A stretch of DNA of 64,000 nucleotides from Massalongia carnosa (lineage: Eukaryota), in contig OZ287083.1 in assembly GCA_965645245.1 (NCBI GenBank), forward strand, positions 682,001 through 746,000, written 5' to 3'. The notes under the pieces are model-generated. The model was not told the DNA's origin. It ran no database searches and saw only the letters and a program-made list of their open reading frames with translations. The position numbers and the translations under genes are program-made. Shown here in pieces: positions 24,910-32,385 of the stretch (within the stretch, counting starts at the first letter, position 1; every line of letters starts with the position of its first letter).

Positions 24910-25151
24910 AACGTTGAGTTTACCGGTTACATTCAATTATCTTGGTTCCGAATGACATTGATTAGATGAAGAGGACAAAACAGCTATGGGTTCCTACTCC
25001 ATAAACTTTTTGATGGAAAAAGCAACACTAAACAGATAAGATAACCAAAGAATGTTGTTTCCTAATTGGCGGGTAGAAGCTCTATTTTGTTCTGTACGTA
25101 CATAGATAGTTTGTGTATCAGGATAGCTACATATTCGCAGGAGATATTCGA

Positions 25152-27227
25152 TCAACTACCACTTGAGTTCTCTTTTTGACGTCGAGCCAACTTCAGACTC
25201 TTTTTAACTCCTTTCATACTTCGCCTGGGTCGAACCATCCTTTTGCTATATGGAACAGATCTCCGACCACCATGCAGCCATGCATTCATAGTTTGGCGAG
25301 CTCCAATATGCTTTCCCTCTGGGCTAAAAACTTCCACAGTTGGGAAAGCCTCTGTACTATTCACGTCTTCACCCTCATTTTCGGCATCTCCAGTTTGTCC
25401 CTTTCGCACCTGCGCCACAAGTTCTACCCATCCACAACCTTCAATCAAAATGTCTGTAGAAAATACAACGAATGAAAGTATTTTTGGATTCAAGCCAATG
25501 GCAGTAGGTGACGTTAGGGGACCAGCACGCTTCCTAGTAACATCCCCATTCAACTGAAAAGTGCCAGCAGAGAGCATATTTGTTCCGACGCCTGGTTTTG
25601 TGATCGAGGGTACACCAGAAGATCGCTGCTCAGTATGAATCGCAATCGCCTTCTCAGTTGACGTAACATGACCTTCTAAGGGTAGAAAAGGGTATGCTAA
25701 AACTGTCACCCCGGTGGTTTTCGGGGTGATCCGGATGAGACGACCTAGTAGAAGTGACTGGCCAGGTTTAAGAACGAACTGCTCAGGTTTCGGTCGATGT
25801 TGCATAACAAGATCTAGCTTATTTTTATCGGCGACATAATCGTCTAGATTTCCACGTGCTAATCCCGGTAGATCTATAAGTTCACCCTTTCCACCGCCAA
25901 AAAGATGTCGGATCGGCGAAGCAGTTGTACCAGGCATCGAAGAAACAACAGGCATAATTGGAAAAGGTTGTTCCTGTGGTGCTGGAGGAAGCATGCTATC
26001 TTCCTGTAAGTAATGTTCATCGAGGTTGGGTAACCCCATGGATCCTTGCAAAGCCCGTATACCCAGTTTTTCCGATCGATTCCCGACCTGGTTCAACATG
26101 TCATGGCTACCATTTTCGCTCTGTCCTTCAGCATCTCGCAAAGAACCAGTGTTAAGCTCTTCATTCCGTCCTTTTGGAAATACGCATTCAAATAGGCTGC
26201 TCTTCCCAACGTTCACCTTTCCGACCATCCATCCACCTCCTCCACGATTCCATATCTCTTCTTTCAAGTTTCTCGTCCACCAACCCCTTTTAGAGCTGAC
26301 ACAGCATACATTTCCTAACCGGATATCTCTGGCAGAAGGTCCTAATGCATCACGTAGTACTTGAACAAGATATGGCATCATTGCATCAACCTGCTCTTTC
26401 TTGGGAGCCAAGAGGTCTGAGCGTGTAATTACGAAGCTCAATTCCGCTTGTCGCCCATGATAAAACTTATGTGTCTTGGCCCGGCGATTTAGTGATCGCT
26501 GGGGCGTCAACGACAAATGTTGATGTAGCTGCGGTATCACTGAAAGGGGAAAGTCGGCTGCATCGAGAACATGGTAGATGTGATTGTATTTGTAAGGCGA
26601 TTCGGATATAATATCCTGTATTGACTGCAACGTCGGGTGTATTATTGAGACACCAGTATGGTGATGTAGCAAATCATGGCAACGGTCACATATTGGCATG
26701 GAAACAGGTTTCTCGCGGTTTGATACTACCTAAAAAGTCAACTATTTGTTCAGCCTAAGGTTAAGGGAAGGGGACTTGGTTTATAGCAGACCAGAAAGAC
26801 CGCATCCTCCCTTTAAATCCCAATCCTGCCCAAGCGCCTGGTTTGCAAACCCTAGAGACTGCTCAAATGCTTTTCTTTCATGTCCTTCCCTGAAGTTACG
26901 TCCTTGCTGTCCCACAAACGCCTTCACAGTCTTTCGATTGATGTTGTAAAACCCAGCTGTATCCGGGGATATAGTTTGTGAGAAAGCACCGCATCCTGGG
27001 CAAGACTTAGGCAAAGCAAATAGCTGCGAGGATGACGTTGAGTCTGCGGCAGGCTTTGCGATTGTCTCTTGCTGTAATAACCGCTTTTGCAAGCTTGAAT
27101 GGTGAGCCTGTAGTTGCCACTGGGCCCTGGGAGTTAACTGGAGACTGCTAAACACGCGGCGGAAAGATACAGGTATTAAAGACTTGCTGGACAGTATTTT
27201 TGATACGAGTTTAGTGAGGGAGGCCAT
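25152..27227 (-). CDS. GEP3: Mitochondrial circularly permuted GTPase Gep3/Mtg3
   Basis: CPGCG and CDRCH Zn motifs, DAADFP, TRSDLL (G4), VGKVNVGKS (G1), PGTT (G2), DLPG (G3); one intron near 26730-26790. Confidence 0.9.
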
Positions 27228-27475
27228 GAAGAAATTGCGGTGGCTAACATTTCATTGTTTAAACGTGAAATACCTACACATCGAAATCACTGATAACAAC
27301 CTCACTGGTTAACAACCATTAATGTATCTAATAGGCAAATCATGGGTTTGACATTATGTGTAGCGTCACCAGATTTATGGTGAGCAGGGAATCAACATTG
27401 GGAGTAAATATAAGAAAAATCTAGGCACTGTCGGACGTATATGTATTAAGTGATCGATTATATATTTTATGTACT

Positions 27476-27624
27476 GAAAATAACGACCAACCAGCCAAAC
27501 TTCCCTCACCGTCTATGTGATAACTATGCATTGTCACCTGCTCTAGTACTGAAATTCGTAGCTGTAGAATATAGTCACTGCCATCCCCAGCTCCTTCGCC
27601 CTTGCCCGCTCTATTTTTCGTCAA
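27476..27624 (+). repeat. Left 149-bp inverted repeat
   Basis: Reverse complement of 31183-31331 with 6 mismatches, all transitions (compared by hand). Confidence 0.95.
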
Positions 27625-27645
27625 ATTGTCCCCCCATTCTTCGAC

Positions 27646-30093
27646 ATGAAACTAAGAGGTCCTCGCTCAAAACGAGCGAATACCGGGCCTCCAAATGCCT
27701 CGACAGAGCCTGTAAAGGCAAAGATAAAACTGACCTTGGCGGGGCCGAAGGGCAAAGATGCTGTCGACGACGATGATCCCATATCGACGCCAACCTCAGC
27801 TCCGAAGGCATCTCGCAGGCAAAAGATCGTTCCCAAGACAAAGCCCCCCCCCCAAGCAAAGTCTTCCAAAGCAAAGCCTCCCAAAGCAAAGCCTCCCAAA
27901 GCAAAGCCCCCTCCCATTATCAAGCCCAGGCCGCCTCCCGGCTCGAATTATTATGCATCCCTAATGGTCCCGGATGACGAAGATGATACAATTGACTCGG
28001 AGAATGACGTAGATGTAGAAAGTGTCGAGGGGAATGTCGAGGAGATTGCCGAGGGGAATGTTGAGGAAGAAGTCGAGAGTGCTGAGGAGAATGTTTTCGT
28101 TTCTGCTGCAAAGAAGATTGTCAAAAATGCCACTACTAGAAAGCCAAAGTCAAATCCACGTACCAAGACCAAGAAGACGCCCTCGTCAGACTCGCCCATT
28201 GTCATCACCTACCTGCTGAATGTGACGGTGATGTTTGAAAAGGATGTCGTTCATCAGATGTCCAGTACTCGAAAAGTTAACTCGGAATCGGAATTCGAAA
28301 AGAGATTCTTTTTCAGACCTCATCTCAATGAGATGAGTTTAAAGGCTCAACGTCATGCAGATGACAAAACTTTTGCTTGTCGACTAGTCAATGTCAAAGC
28401 CACTGTTGCATGGAATGGCATCAAACCTCAAGAACGTATGTCTCTGATGTTGGAAGAGTCTTGGCTTCCAATTGAAGAAGTCTTGATTTTCCGATATGAG
28501 AATGGAGCAAAAAGTTTGGCCGTCGATCTAATCTATCAATTCGCTCGGACCAAAAGCGGTGAAATTCCAGAAGATCCGACTGCTGCCGTTTCCAAAAAGT
28601 TGGGAACGGCCACCTTGAAATTGCAGAAGGAGTTGGAGGAGAGGGCCATTCTTCATGGTCAGACAGTTGAAAGAATGACGGCTCTACAATCTCTGCATGT
28701 CTGTAAGAAGAAGACATGTGAGAATTTCGGCCGATACTGTTGGAACGATGAAGAAAGAGATCAACATTACATTATCAGCAGTCATCAGTTCGTGGCTTGG
28801 AATAAGGCATTGGATGATGACGTTTCGGGAGTCACTTCTCAGATGCCTCCATCGACTATCAGGGAAAGTATGTATTCGCAAAAAGGTAAAAGGAAGACTG
28901 CATCATCGACTCCGAAACAGGAAAGTCAGGAAGATTCGACCAGACATTTGCATCCCATCTATCAGCATCCCGCGTATCAATCCTTCCCCCCCTGGGCATT
29001 TGGACCCCCCTCGACGTTTGTCAACCCCTCAGCATTTGCCAACCCCTCGGCATTTATTCCTTCTTCACCACTTCCCCAGCTTCATTCGTCCCAGTTTCCT
29101 TCTTATTCTCCTTCTCAAGCTTCCGACTTCAGACGTCATCGAGACGAAACGCCTGTGGATCGAAGAGATCGTCAAGGAAGTTATGCCCCCTCCGTCGTCG
29201 CCCCTCCCGCCGCTCCGAGCAGTCCAGTGGAGGAAGATTTGGAAGACTATGTCAATTGGCATATCCAATCCAAACCTCATCTGAAAGGCGTACTGAGGCA
29301 TGCGTACGATCGACTGATGGAAAGGTGGGTACGATTTAATGACTATCCAGACATTAAAGGGTATTGAGCATCAGTCCTTCTGGTCGAAGCTGAGTATTCC
29401 TCCCGGTATCGGAATTCAGCTGGCACGAGATGTCAGCAAATTTGGAAGACAGATGCAGATGCAAATGCCTCCGCCTTCCTCTCGGCGAATGCATCCGCCC
29501 CGTCTCGGCAAATGTCTCGACGTCCACGTTACCTGCCAACTTCGCAAATGACCACTCAGGCCAATACTCAGGTCATAAAAGAGGTGGATGAGGAAGAGGT
29601 GGATGAGGAAGAGGTGGATGAGGAAGAGGTGGATGAGGAAGAGGTGGATGAGGAAGAGGTGGATGAGGAAGAGGTGGATGAGGAAGAGGTGGATGAGGAA
29701 GAGGTGGATGAGGAAGAGGTGGATGAGGAAGAGGTGGATGAGGAAGAGGTGGATGAGGAAGAGGTGGATGAGGAAGAGGTGGATGAGGAAGAGGTGGATG
29801 AGGAAGAGGTGGATGAGGAAGAGGTGGATGAGGAAGAGGTGGATGAGGAAGAGGTGGATGAGGAAGAGGTGGATGAGGAAGAGGTGGATGAGGAAGAGGT
29901 GGATGAGGAAGAGGTGGATGAGGAAGAGGTGGAGGAGGAAGAGGTGGATGAGGAAGAGGTGGATGAGGAAGAGGTGGATGAGACACTAGGGGAGATAAAA
30001 AGGGTTGATCCGAGAATGGAAGATGCCATTGAGGAGGATGAGTTGGAAAATACGTATAATCTAGAATACGACTATGCCGAAGAAGAATATTAG
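27646..30093 (+). CDS. Transposon-borne ~815-aa protein (basic N-terminus, Cys/His Zn-finger-like domain, Pro-rich linker, helical domain, EVDEE tail), two apparent frameshifts
   Basis: 573-aa ORF joins 29339-29551 by removing one G near 29326-29328, then joins 29512-30093 by adding one C near 29498-29501; motif HVCKKKTCENFGRYCW...H. Confidence 0.65.
27855..27915 (+). repeat. 15-bp coding repeat (KAKPP)
   Basis: GCAAAGCCTCCCAAA-like unit about four times. Confidence 0.8.
29581..29982 (+). repeat. 15-bp minisatellite GAGGTGGATGAGGAA (EVDEE)
   Basis: 26 full units plus a 12-nt partial; one variant unit at 29926-29940. Confidence 0.98.
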
Positions 30094-30144
30094 ATTAGAT
30101 TTCGAAATGAGACAGACAAGATGTCTGCAGACAGCAATCTAGAT

Positions 30145-31181
30145 CTAGATCTGAATAGTGGGATACTGAATACCGGCCATTCTAAATAAATTTCCCGGGT
30201 CTCCCATTCGACTTCTTTCTTTGACTGCATCCCGAAGAAATTGTCCGAACCCTCCATACACCTCTGTATATGAGAGACTCATCTCTCCATTTCGACGAAT
30301 CCATGCTTTCAGCAATGCAAACGACGTCTCAATTGGATTGAAATCCGGAGACTAAGGAGGTAGTCTTGCCAAGGTGACGTTGGCAGCCTCACACATCTGA
30401 ATGAGATCGTCATTCCAATGAATTCGAGCATTATCTAACACTAAAACAGATCTAGGACCTCCGTCGGCAGTGCAATGAGGAAGGACGTGATTTAGAACAA
30501 AATCATTGAAGATCAATGCAGTTATGGAGCCCTGATGCACCTCCCAAGCTATATATCCATCGACCGTAAATGCAGGAAGAATGCTCCATCTCTTTGACCT
30601 TCTCAAATCCTGAACCATGGTCGCAGGAACACCGGCCGGTGCCCAGCCGTATCGACGATCACCTATATATGAGATGAGAAGAAAGATGAGAAGAAGATAG
30701 GAAGATAAATACCGGTTCTTTCACACGCGGCACTTTCGTCTAGGAAGACCAATTGCTCGGCAGTCCAACCTCCTAGTCGTTGCATCCAACCGTCGCGTAG
30801 AGTTTGATTCCGTTGAGCTGCCTGACGTCTCACCTTCTTTCGATTCCAACCAAGTCGTCTGAGGGCACGACTGACAGTGGATTCGTCGACGGAAATCTGA
30901 AATTCATCCCAGACAAACCAGCACATTTCATCCAGGTAGGCATGGGGGCGTTGCTCCAGGAATTCCAACAGTTGCAATTCATGATACTGACTCAACTTTC
31001 TAGGTCGATGACCAAGAGTTATTTGTGGAGCGACGTCTCCAAAATTCGTCCAATTGGACCTCATCAATTGCACCTGCCGAAGACTGACTCCGGTGACAGC
31101 TGCTATTCTTTTGTTATCGTCATTTCTTACAAATCTGAGGGTAATTGTCTCCCTCATGGCGGGACTGAGGGGGCGAGGCAT
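30145..31181 (-). pseudogene. Tc1/IS630-family DD34E transposase with one intron and a premature stop
   Basis: HTH N-terminus (YLDEM, STVSRAL), FLDES, intron ~30664-30711, YGWAP, LDNARIH, LPP*SPDFNPIE (TAG at 30352-30354 where Tyr is expected). Confidence 0.9.
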
Positions 31182-31182
31182 C

Positions 31183-31331
31183 TTGACGAAAAATAGAGCG
31201 GGCAAGGGCGGAGGAGCTGGGGATGGCAGTGACTATATTCCACAGCTACGAATTTCAGTACTAGAACAGGTAGTAATGCATAGTTATCACATAGACGGTG
31301 AGGGAAGTTTGGCTGGTTGGTCGTTATTTTC
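31183..31331 (-). repeat. Right 149-bp inverted repeat
   Basis: Partner of 27476-27624; ends 1 nt before the transposase ATG. Confidence 0.95.
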
Positions 31332-31506
31332 GCTAAATTTTGAGGTGTCGTGGCCATTTCAGGGTCCGCGCAGACCCTTTTGCAAGCGACAGTATCTAAA
31401 ATAGATATGCAATTTCGCTCGATATCTTAAAATCAATATCATGGAAAAGTAAAACCATAACTTTGAATGAAAGATCATTTTTATATTATTATACAATAAG
31501 CGGCCA

Positions 31507-32385
31507 CTATTGAGTTGCTACAACTTTAGATGAATTACCGTTGTTGTCCTGTCCTTCAGTTGACTCGTCGCTCATATATTCATCATCACCATCATCGTCG
31601 AAGCCGAAATAGGACTGCGTAAGGTTGTTCTTCGCTGATCTTCGGGCGCTTGTTCCGTGATTGTGCTTGTCAAGGTTTTCGTCCTCATTCTCATCACTTG
31701 TCTGATCTGATCCTCCCCCAGAACTGCCACCTGATATTCGCATAAGATTATCTTGATATCCACCCGTCTTCATAGCGGCAAAAACAGCCTCTCTGGTCCG
31801 CTCTCCTACTTCCTCTTTATCCTCCACCCACCTCCCATCCACTCGCCCTTTCGATCCGTTTCTAATTTCTTCCTCCCTCTTTTCAGCCAAGTTAGCCACT
31901 TGTTCCCAACGCTTTCGCCGAGCTTCCTTCACTTTCTTGTCCATGTCTGGCTTAAGCGCCAAATACTCGGCAAGTGCTTTTGCTTCCGTTATGGTTCTTA
32001 GACGTCGGCCATCCAAATTCCGGTTGGAGCTATTCGCCTCCCCTTGATTCTTCTTACGACGAGACGACATACGCCCTCCTGCTGCTCGTAGTTGTGAGCC
32101 GAAACCACCCTTTCCACCACATAACGGGACAGACAGTCGAATCGGGAGGAATGCATCGGTATCACAAGACAGTAAAGAAGCGATGGGCGCTGAAGAGAGC
32201 GGCTGTATCTCTCTATTCGCAGTAGTTGTAAGGATAAGTCGGCTTTTCAGCTCAGGTAGGTAGCATAAGAGTTTTGTATAAAAGTCCTTGATGGGTGCAG
32301 AGGAAGAAATAGGAATAGATAGTGTGGCTGGCAAGCTGAGACCAGAAAAGGTGGTAAGAAGTACATTGATCATCTTGGGAGCCAT
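31507..32385 (-). CDS. SDE2: Sde2 ubiquitin-fold splicing/telomere-silencing factor
   Basis: LCGGKGGFGSQLRAAG cleavage motif; SNRNLDGRRLR. Confidence 0.93.
   Translation of the reverse strand: MAPKMINVLLTTFSGLSLPATLSIPISSSAPIKDFYTKLLCYLPELKSRLILTTTANREIQPLSSAPIASLLSCDTDAFLPIRLSVPLCGGKGGFGSQLRAAGGRMSSRRKKNQGEANSSNRNLDGRRLRTITEAKALAEYLALKPDMDKKVKEARRKRWEQVANLAEKREEEIRNGSKGRVDGRWVEDKEEVGERTREAVFAAMKTGGYQDNLMRISGGSSGGGSDQTSDENEDENLDKHNHGTSARRSAKNNLTQSYFGFDDDGDDEYMSDESTEGQDNNGNSSKVVATQ

Follow-up and report, generated by a model that had tools for sequence, protein, structure and literature searches.

Tc1/mariner elements are the textbook minimal transposons, with one protein and two ends, and this simplicity underlies their use as gene-transfer tools across kingdoms. 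Transposons of the Tc1 family (DD34E), such as Tc1 and impala, are usually ~1.3-2.4 kb long. MuDR of maize carries two convergent genes (mudrA and mudrB) beside long terminal inverted repeats that hold promoters, and PIF/Harbinger elements encode, together with the transposase, a Myb/SANT-type DNA-binding second protein and produce a 3-bp duplication. Here we describe an element of ~3.9 kb located in a 64,000-nt stretch of the Massalongia carnosa genome (GenBank assembly GCA_965645245.1, contig OZ287083.1, positions 682,001 to 746,000 of the forward strand); this whole stretch is called the window, and positions below count from its first letter. We consider it likely that the element belongs to the Tc1 (DD34E) branch of the IS630-Tc1-mariner group and is one copy of a young cut-and-paste transposon that is multi-copy, carries two genes and was inserted here at TA. 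One of its two convergent genes encodes a transposase; the other is designated here by its open reading frame (ORF), ORF2.

The element is placed in the Tc1 (DD34E) family by a DDE_3 domain, a 34-residue spacing between catalytic residues, an N-terminal helix-turn-helix region and a TA duplication; its second gene and, in this copy, the unequal tips of its inverted repeats set it apart. It differs from Tc1 and impala in length and in not being a single-gene element: it has a second, convergent gene of ~690 or more codons, its canonical repeats are read as 210 bp long, and its genes start 1-21 nt inside the repeats. The original prediction for this locus, made from the sequence alone, compared it with MuDR. 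The comparison is valid for the layout only, as the transposase of MuDR is of MULE type and its duplication is 9 bp long, whereas DDE_3 and a TA duplication are found here. PIF/Harbinger, a cut-and-paste element for which a second DNA-binding protein is or may be required, provides by analogy the functional model that we propose for ORF2, although its transposase is of another family.

The same prediction assumed that Tc1/mariner elements normally encode only a transposase; published exceptions speak against this. The consulted part of Bao and Jurka (2013, PMC3627910) reports Mariner elements with Fanzor1 and virus-borne Mariner elements with endonuclease/methyltransferase genes; the hosts in its table are early-diverging fungi, yeasts, protists and viruses. 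These elements are like ours in their Tc1/mariner-type ends, the TA duplication and the presence of extra protein genes inside. ORF2, in contrast, does not have the D...[TS][TS]xx-C4 zinc finger...RD motif; Fanzor identity was rejected for this reason. There is no invariant D or RD in seven diverse members of the ORF2 family, and no OrfB-type match is present among the Pfam families shown for 63 members. In ciliates, according to the consulted part of PMC7325037, TBE/Tec elements combine a DD34E transposase with further ORFs, one of them on the other strand, within long inverted repeats. TBE/Tec reside in the ciliate germline, their repeats are ~700 bp long, and a recombinase or a zinc-finger/kinase-type protein is among the products of their three ORFs; no search conducted here revealed a sequence relation to ORF2. 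The claim of a two-gene Tc1 transposon is upheld as far as a second convergent gene inside the ends is concerned, while multi-gene organization has precedents in Tc1/mariner.

A literature search, which did not extend to Repbase and Dfam, found no fungal Tc1 element described as having a second gene of this kind in the consulted parts of the sources, among them PMC5751038, PMC6431247, PMC8773270, PMC9977792 and bioRxiv 10.64898/2026.02.14.705750. This agrees with the earlier proposal of a possibly undescribed fungal lineage; the accessory role included in that proposal is conjectural. The RepeatMasker class TcMar-Sagan has been reported in fungi; the structure is not described in the part of the source consulted, so membership of the element in this class is not claimed. 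A deposited, unpublished consensus of the element may exist, e.g. under TcMar-Sagan.

The bounds of the element were determined from an empty site. Five sequencing runs cover the region; their read contigs were compared over positions 25000-29700 (ORF2 side and left end). A contig of 13.8 kb from run X5, labelled lichen metagenome, matches the window over 25000-27473 with 11 substitutions; its next 30 letters are identical to window positions 31395-31424 (0 mismatches, one match in the window). The contig thus joins 27473 to 31395 and represents the empty site, and the inserted segment is 27474-31392 (3,919 bp). The dinucleotide TA, present once at the empty site, is found twice in the window, directly outside the two ends, as a target-site duplication (Table 1). 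Both genes are jointly missing at this precise site. Run X5 has no contig over 27512-29700; absence of the element from that sample is not to be concluded from such missing cover.

An empty TA site between the genes GEP3 and SDE2 had been named in advance as a check on the prediction, and the X5 contig provides it. The short outer termini placed earlier outside the repeats fared less well. The left one (27424) is ordinary flank that the empty-site contig covers too; the right one (31396) is near the right end, 4 nt outside the true end at 31392. The left flank at 27422-27433 holds TAGGCACTGTCG, in which ACTGTCG equals the true right tip of the element, inverted. Since TAGGCACTGTCG is also present at the empty site, it is older than the insertion; its likeness to the right tip may be due to chance or may be a remnant of an older end.

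The transposase gene is split by an intron (Table 1). With the intron removed, a 987-nt frame of 328 codons is obtained, in which ...ACERTG is joined to DRRYGWAP. In the Pfam search with exon 1, the HTH_33 match was above the cut-off, and those of HTH_32 and HTH_23 were below theirs; exon 2, translated with X at an in-frame TAG, matched PF13358 (DDE_3) with 82.9 bits against a cut-off of 28.6. In the spliced translation, 34 residues (the TAG counted as a residue) separate the D of VLDNARIH from the E of NPIE, which we take, by their motifs, to be residues of the catalytic triad; this spacing identifies a DD34E (Tc1-type) enzyme. The TAG codon (30354-30352) replaces Tyr of the sequence PPYSPDFNPIE; P0166 and other relatives keep this Tyr (labels of this form denote homologues or clusters of them).

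Relatives of the transposase in fungi form 222 exon-size clusters, plus 32 longer ones; the comparisons reported here used the 120 of the 222 exon-size clusters that were listed, with the longest contig of each cluster. Some relatives are intron-less proteins of ~330 aa that start with MPPPLS. The N-terminus of the window's transposase, MPRPLS, resembles those of P0314 (MPPPLS) and P0321 (MPPLLE), both intron-less. P0314 is collinear with the spliced protein and is 60% and 46% identical to the two exons, and 60% identical over the catalytic part. The N-terminus of P0203, encoded on a contig of 8,756 nt, apparently reads through an intron to ...DRPSGWAPKG, which points to an intron positioned like that of the window gene.

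The inverted repeat was reproduced by a BLASTN comparison of the region with the window: 27476-27624 and 31331-31183 are 149 bp long with 143 identical positions (95.97%), as the original prediction had it. A repeat finder extends the repeat to 167 nt at 92% identity. BLASTN detected no additional copy in the 64-kb window. The predicted geometry was confirmed as well: the transposase ATG is 1 nt from the inner end of the repeat, the ATG of ORF2 is 21 nt past the inner end of the left arm, and the frames end with 51 nt between them (~50 bp had been predicted). A pyrimidine-rich stretch preceded by AATATAG is located upstream of both start codons, an arrangement typical of filamentous-fungal core promoters. 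Judging from this geometry, it is plausible that the repeat is a duplicated promoter for both genes.

At their tips the two arms differ: the 149-bp repeat is 2 nt away from the left end but 61 nt away from the right end, and only CT(G) is common to both tips. The arm alignment shows six substitutions and, in the left arm, a gap of 58-59 nt straight behind the terminal CT(G). In run X1, the single-copy flank contig reaches 27504, i.e. it passes through the left tip, so the 31-letter words over this tip are not common to other copies; loose ends before 27476 in runs X3 and X4 carry sequence of the right-arm type. We therefore read 210 bp as the length of the canonical repeat: it would be ~210 bp on both sides, with the left arm shortened by 58-59 bp in this copy.

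Read depth and the spread of homologues indicate that the element is repeated. In X1, the flank contig has a k-mer depth of 138.9 compared with 1114.5 for an unbranched contig of 2,012 nt (27597-29607) that runs from the left arm through ORF2; the pieces of the arm at 27504-69 have depths of 1304 (left-arm variant) and 951 (right-arm variant). The same step in depth was seen in X3 and X4. The k-mer depth of the ORF2 side is ~8 times that of the flank; as contig depth is not the same as copy number, we use this value only as a sign that ORF2 and both types of arm are repeated roughly eight-fold. Homologues are dispersed, too: the ORF2 cluster P0001 (96% identical) has six members on six contigs of different Mb sizes, and the cluster P0166 of the transposase exon (99% identical) has five members on four contigs. 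Of three long loose ends in X4 (at 27778, 28192 and 28759), two begin with GATC, like the junctions of a proximity-ligation library; none of the three was treated as an insertion variant.

Other copies encode an intact transposase exon and an intact ORF2; such copies are on several Mb-scale contigs, two of which match in size (see below). The dinucleotide indices of the element, TpA/ApT 0.44 and (CpA+TpG)/(ApC+GpT) 1.44, reveal no bias of the type left by repeat-induced point mutation (RIP), and RIP in this copy was rejected. The element looks recently active, given its lack of RIP marks, the existence of intact copies and a near-identical genome in which the site is empty.

A second subfamily seems to be present in the same or a closely related genome, represented by P0003/P0004 and P0168/P0170/P0171 on Mb-scale contigs. 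Its ORF2 homologues are 54% and its transposase exons 82-86% identical to those of the window, and ORF2 has thus diverged much faster than the transposase. P0003 and P0157 (96% cluster) are both on contigs of 3,767,895 nt.

In the copy described here, both genes are damaged. The ORF2 frame stops at 29365-67 and then reopens in the same phase; comparison with P0001 (96%) and P0003 (54%) places the family frame in another phase from ~29321 to ~29497. At 29321, contigs of X1, X3 and X4 are one base shorter than the window, and after 29497 they have one more C. Either ORF2 of this copy carries a pair of 1-nt indels that compensate each other and enclose a stop, or two homopolymer errors are present in its assembled sequence. 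The acidic tail contains a coding minisatellite (Table 1), of which P0001 has only ~2 units; the array has either grown in this copy or differs in size from one copy or assembly to another. With the TAG in the transposase, the two frameshifts in ORF2 and the short left arm, the window copy is probably non-autonomous. Intact copies elsewhere could still mobilise it.

Table 1. Features of the element in the window
Feature	Position	Strand	Basis
Left TA target-site duplication copy	27472..27473	.	X5 empty site
Left terminal inverted repeat, 151 bp	27474..27624	+	Arm alignment
ORF2, accessory gene (putative), interrupted in this copy	27646..30093	+	Reading frames, homologue comparison
Coding minisatellite, 15-bp unit x26.9, 99% identity, (EEVDE)n in acidic tail of ORF2	29579..29982	+	
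Transposase exon 2, DDE_3 domain; stop codon 30147-30145	30145..30662	-	DDE_3 2.8e-23
Transposase intron, 50 nt, GTATTT...TATAG	30663..30712	-	Splicing gives one frame; P0314 collinear
Transposase exon 1, helix-turn-helix DNA-binding region	30713..31181	-	HTH_33 2.8e-07; HTH_32, HTH_23
Right terminal inverted repeat, 210 bp, tip 5'-CTGTCGCTTGC on minus strand	31183..31392	-	Arm alignment; end from empty site
Right TA target-site duplication copy	31393..31394	.	X5 empty site

ORF2 belongs to a family of uncharacterized fungal proteins. A profile search against 1.84 billion representatives detected 174 clusters at E<=1e-3, of which 67 reach <=1e-10 and 9 reach <=1e-30; a word-based search found four relatives only. 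Full-length members have 600-800 aa and are built alike: the N-terminus is basic and is followed by a disordered stretch, a conserved core, a Pro/Tyr-rich linker, a C-terminal domain that is conserved too, and an acidic tail. No Pfam family was found in any of 21 long members, and none was matched by more than two of 63 members; a search of PDB sequences with the family profile gave no match at E<=1. One of the 63 members matches Pfam DUF7924 at 2e-20, possibly through a fusion made in gene prediction. The only name given to these proteins in the sources is ‘hypothetical protein’, in two cases from metagenome-assembled genomes of lichen-forming fungi.

AlphaFold2 (63-row alignment) gave high-confidence folds for residues 75-310 and 425-500 of P0001. 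Residues 81-196 align with the PB1 domain 4mjs_A (Z 7.4, root-mean-square deviation (rmsd) 3.0, 85 of 88 residues), and the best Foldseek E-value of the beta-grasp region, 3.5e-3, is to beta-grasp domains; neither ORF2 nor the 63 family members have a Pfam PB1 match. The weak top matches of Foldseek to bacterial superantigen-like proteins were taken as a sign of the common beta-grasp fold only. Residues 422-501 align with the tankyrase SAM domain 5jti_A (Z 6.3, rmsd 2.7, 61 residues aligned), and also with the RAD51C N-domain (Z 5.4) and the acidic-repeat helix-hairpin-helix domain of NusA (Z 5.3); the SAM cluster of the Atlas has a score of only 0.79. All these matches have Z<8, a range that may reflect a mere common arrangement.

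The columns invariant in seven diverse members are C, C, C, H, W, P, SSP, W, A, G, W, PGxG and A. They include C247, C252, C259 and H268 (P0001 numbering), putative zinc ligands with the spacing C-x4-C-x6-C-x8-H, and P480, G481, G483 and A487. The pattern P480-G481-x-G483...A487 fits what we take to be the helix-hairpin-helix consensus (a Gly-hydrophobic-Gly hairpin). Folded alone, the middle CCCH domain (mean predicted local distance difference test score, pLDDT, 79.4) had a best Z of 4.5, with no chains at Z>=5, no Foldseek match at E<=0.001 and no usable Atlas match. We thus describe ORF2 as a predicted protein with a PB1-like beta-grasp, a CCCH zinc module that matches no structure, and a SAM/helix-hairpin-helix-like C-terminus.

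Pairing of ORF2 with the transposase beyond this genome was assessed by comparing the contig sizes recorded for ORF2-family proteins with those of transposase homologues. Between 66 distinct sizes of ORF2-family contigs and 149 distinct sizes of transposase contigs there are seven exact matches; ~0.5 would be expected from the local near-miss density. Two of the seven matching contigs are of Mb scale and are probably from the window's own species. The other five are outside it, in five other assemblies, at ORF2 identities near 25%: contigs of 4,066 nt (P0011, 771 aa, with transposase homologue P0314, 333 aa), 8,756 nt (P0026 with P0203), 50,441 nt (P0081 with P0321), 71,736 nt (P0289 with P0214) and 356,187 nt (P0017 with P0192). 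P0011 and P0001 share 25% identity over 469 residues (E 2e-33); P0011 and P0314 together would fill 3.3 kb of a 4.07-kb contig. Twelve of 70 ORF2-family rows listed are on contigs about as long as this element (3.6-4.15 kb). By these comparisons the ORF2-transposase pairing looks old. For the co-occurrence that the original prediction asked for, the homologue pairs on equal-size contigs in five assemblies are indirect evidence. Four scans for related loci returned nothing, two of metagenome contigs (with the ORF2 alignment and with P0018) and two of genome contigs (with alignment A5 and with the transposase alignment A6).

Several points weigh against reading the locus as one copy of a multi-copy two-gene transposon. 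The convergent layout inside repeats is directly observed only in this copy; elsewhere it rests on contig depth and equal contig sizes. Three of the five outside matches are on contigs of 50-356 kb, on which two genes can both be present without being neighbours, and one of the two matches on small contigs could be due to chance. Only five of the 66 ORF2-family contig sizes gave an outside match, the other ORF2 homologues having no shown partner (among the 120 of 222 transposase clusters compared), and the Mantel correlation between the pairwise identities of ORF2 and those of the transposase across six putative pairs is weak (0.35, with 64 of 720 permutations as high). The ORF2 frameshifts sit in homopolymer runs and could be assembly errors. 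The structural matches, all of Z<8, may indicate just a common arrangement. Finally, promoter activity of the repeat, transcription, and contact of ORF2 with the transposase or the ends are inferred.

If the element is a two-gene transposon, it could work as follows. Each repeat would supply a promoter and a short leader for the gene just inside it, so that both genes would be convergently co-expressed. ORF2 would be a dedicated nuclear accessory factor with a basic N-terminus. Its PB1-like and SAM-like modules, if correctly modelled, could allow self-association, and the CCCH zinc module and the PGIG motif of helix-hairpin-helix type could bind DNA. By analogy with the second protein of PIF/Harbinger or MuDR, ORF2 might help the transposase to find the ends or to assemble on them. 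It is the predicted domains together with the long association that lead us to suggest an accessory factor acting at the ends. More tentatively, we propose as a possibility that the element represents an undescribed, widespread fungal Tc1 lineage that needs a second protein polymerising on the 210-bp repeats to recruit or license the transposase, with both genes driven inward by one promoter. If true, fungi would have their first two-component Tc1/mariner system, comparable to PIF/Harbinger and MuDR but within a superfamily known for needing only its transposase.

Alternatively, ORF2 could be a passenger, i.e. a gene of fungal origin or from another mobile element, captured by a Tc1 element and having no role in transposition, comparable to Pack-type transduplication or the carriage of cargo; we regard this as unlikely. 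Most ORF2 homologues have no transposase partner among the clusters compared, and ORF2 diverges faster than the transposase, with identities of ~25% versus 49-64% between putative pairs (54% versus 82-86% in the second subfamily). Moreover, captured second genes such as Fanzor1 have been published for Mariner elements (the consulted part of PMC3627910). However, co-residence in five other assemblies at ~25% ORF2 identity argues for one old association rather than recent capture. ORF2 has also kept long frames and the invariant Cys/His and PGIG residues across the family while residing in a multi-copy element, and no named cellular orthologue was found among its homologues, whose only name is the one given above.

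In another scenario, ORF2 would act against the host, as a copy-number regulator or as a suppressor of genome defence or silencing that works through the PB1/SAM-like modules. The fast evolution of ORF2 relative to the transposase, the predicted protein-interaction modules and the lack of RIP-type mutation bias in the element are in line with such a role. Yet missing RIP marks are equally well explained by young copies or by weak RIP in this fungus, and the zinc module and the motif that we take to be of helix-hairpin-helix type fit nucleic-acid binding at least as well. We consider this scenario quite improbable. A composite of two insertions, or a Tc1 element beside a resident gene with the repeat duplicated in inverted order by rearrangement and the unit as a whole not transposing, is the least likely explanation and a very improbable one: the arms do differ in length (210 bp right, 151 bp left) with only CT(G) common at their ends, and the left tip appears unique to this locus, but at the empty site precisely 27474-31392 is missing and a single TA is left, the 2,012-nt contig joining the left arm to ORF2 has ~8-fold depth throughout, both arm variants are multi-copy (1304 and 951 versus 139 for the flank), and intact copies of both genes are found on several Mb-scale contigs, two of them of equal size.

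The two-gene transposon that we favour is inserted between two genes. The right flank is the SDE2 gene (Pfam Sde2_N_Ubi 3.7e-22, SDE2 1.1e-19). The left flank encodes a YqeH-type GTPase, with a weak match (TIGR03597 5.7e-14, below the curated cut-off) and an MMR_HSR1 match. Of the location between GEP3 and SDE2 given in the original prediction, the SDE2 neighbour is thus confirmed; the name GEP3 is compatible with the YqeH-type match, which by its weakness does not prove it. The SDE2 stop is 115 bp from the element, which lies downstream of it, and the GEP3-like gene (minus strand, first exon 26781-27227) has the element 247 bp upstream of its start codon. With spacings this short (27227-27474 and 31392-31507), the insertion may touch, and may influence, the GEP3-like promoter and the SDE2 3' end.

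A lineage that keeps a second large gene down to ~25% identity would show that this superfamily, the model of transposon simplicity, can gain accessory factors. It would give a genomic context and a name to at least 174 uncharacterized fungal protein clusters, and it would be a simple example from nature of a repeat that acts as the promoter of each of two convergent genes. The host is probably a lichen-forming fungus, and in this group, for which few genetic tools exist, the element could serve as a population marker and later, perhaps, as a tool.

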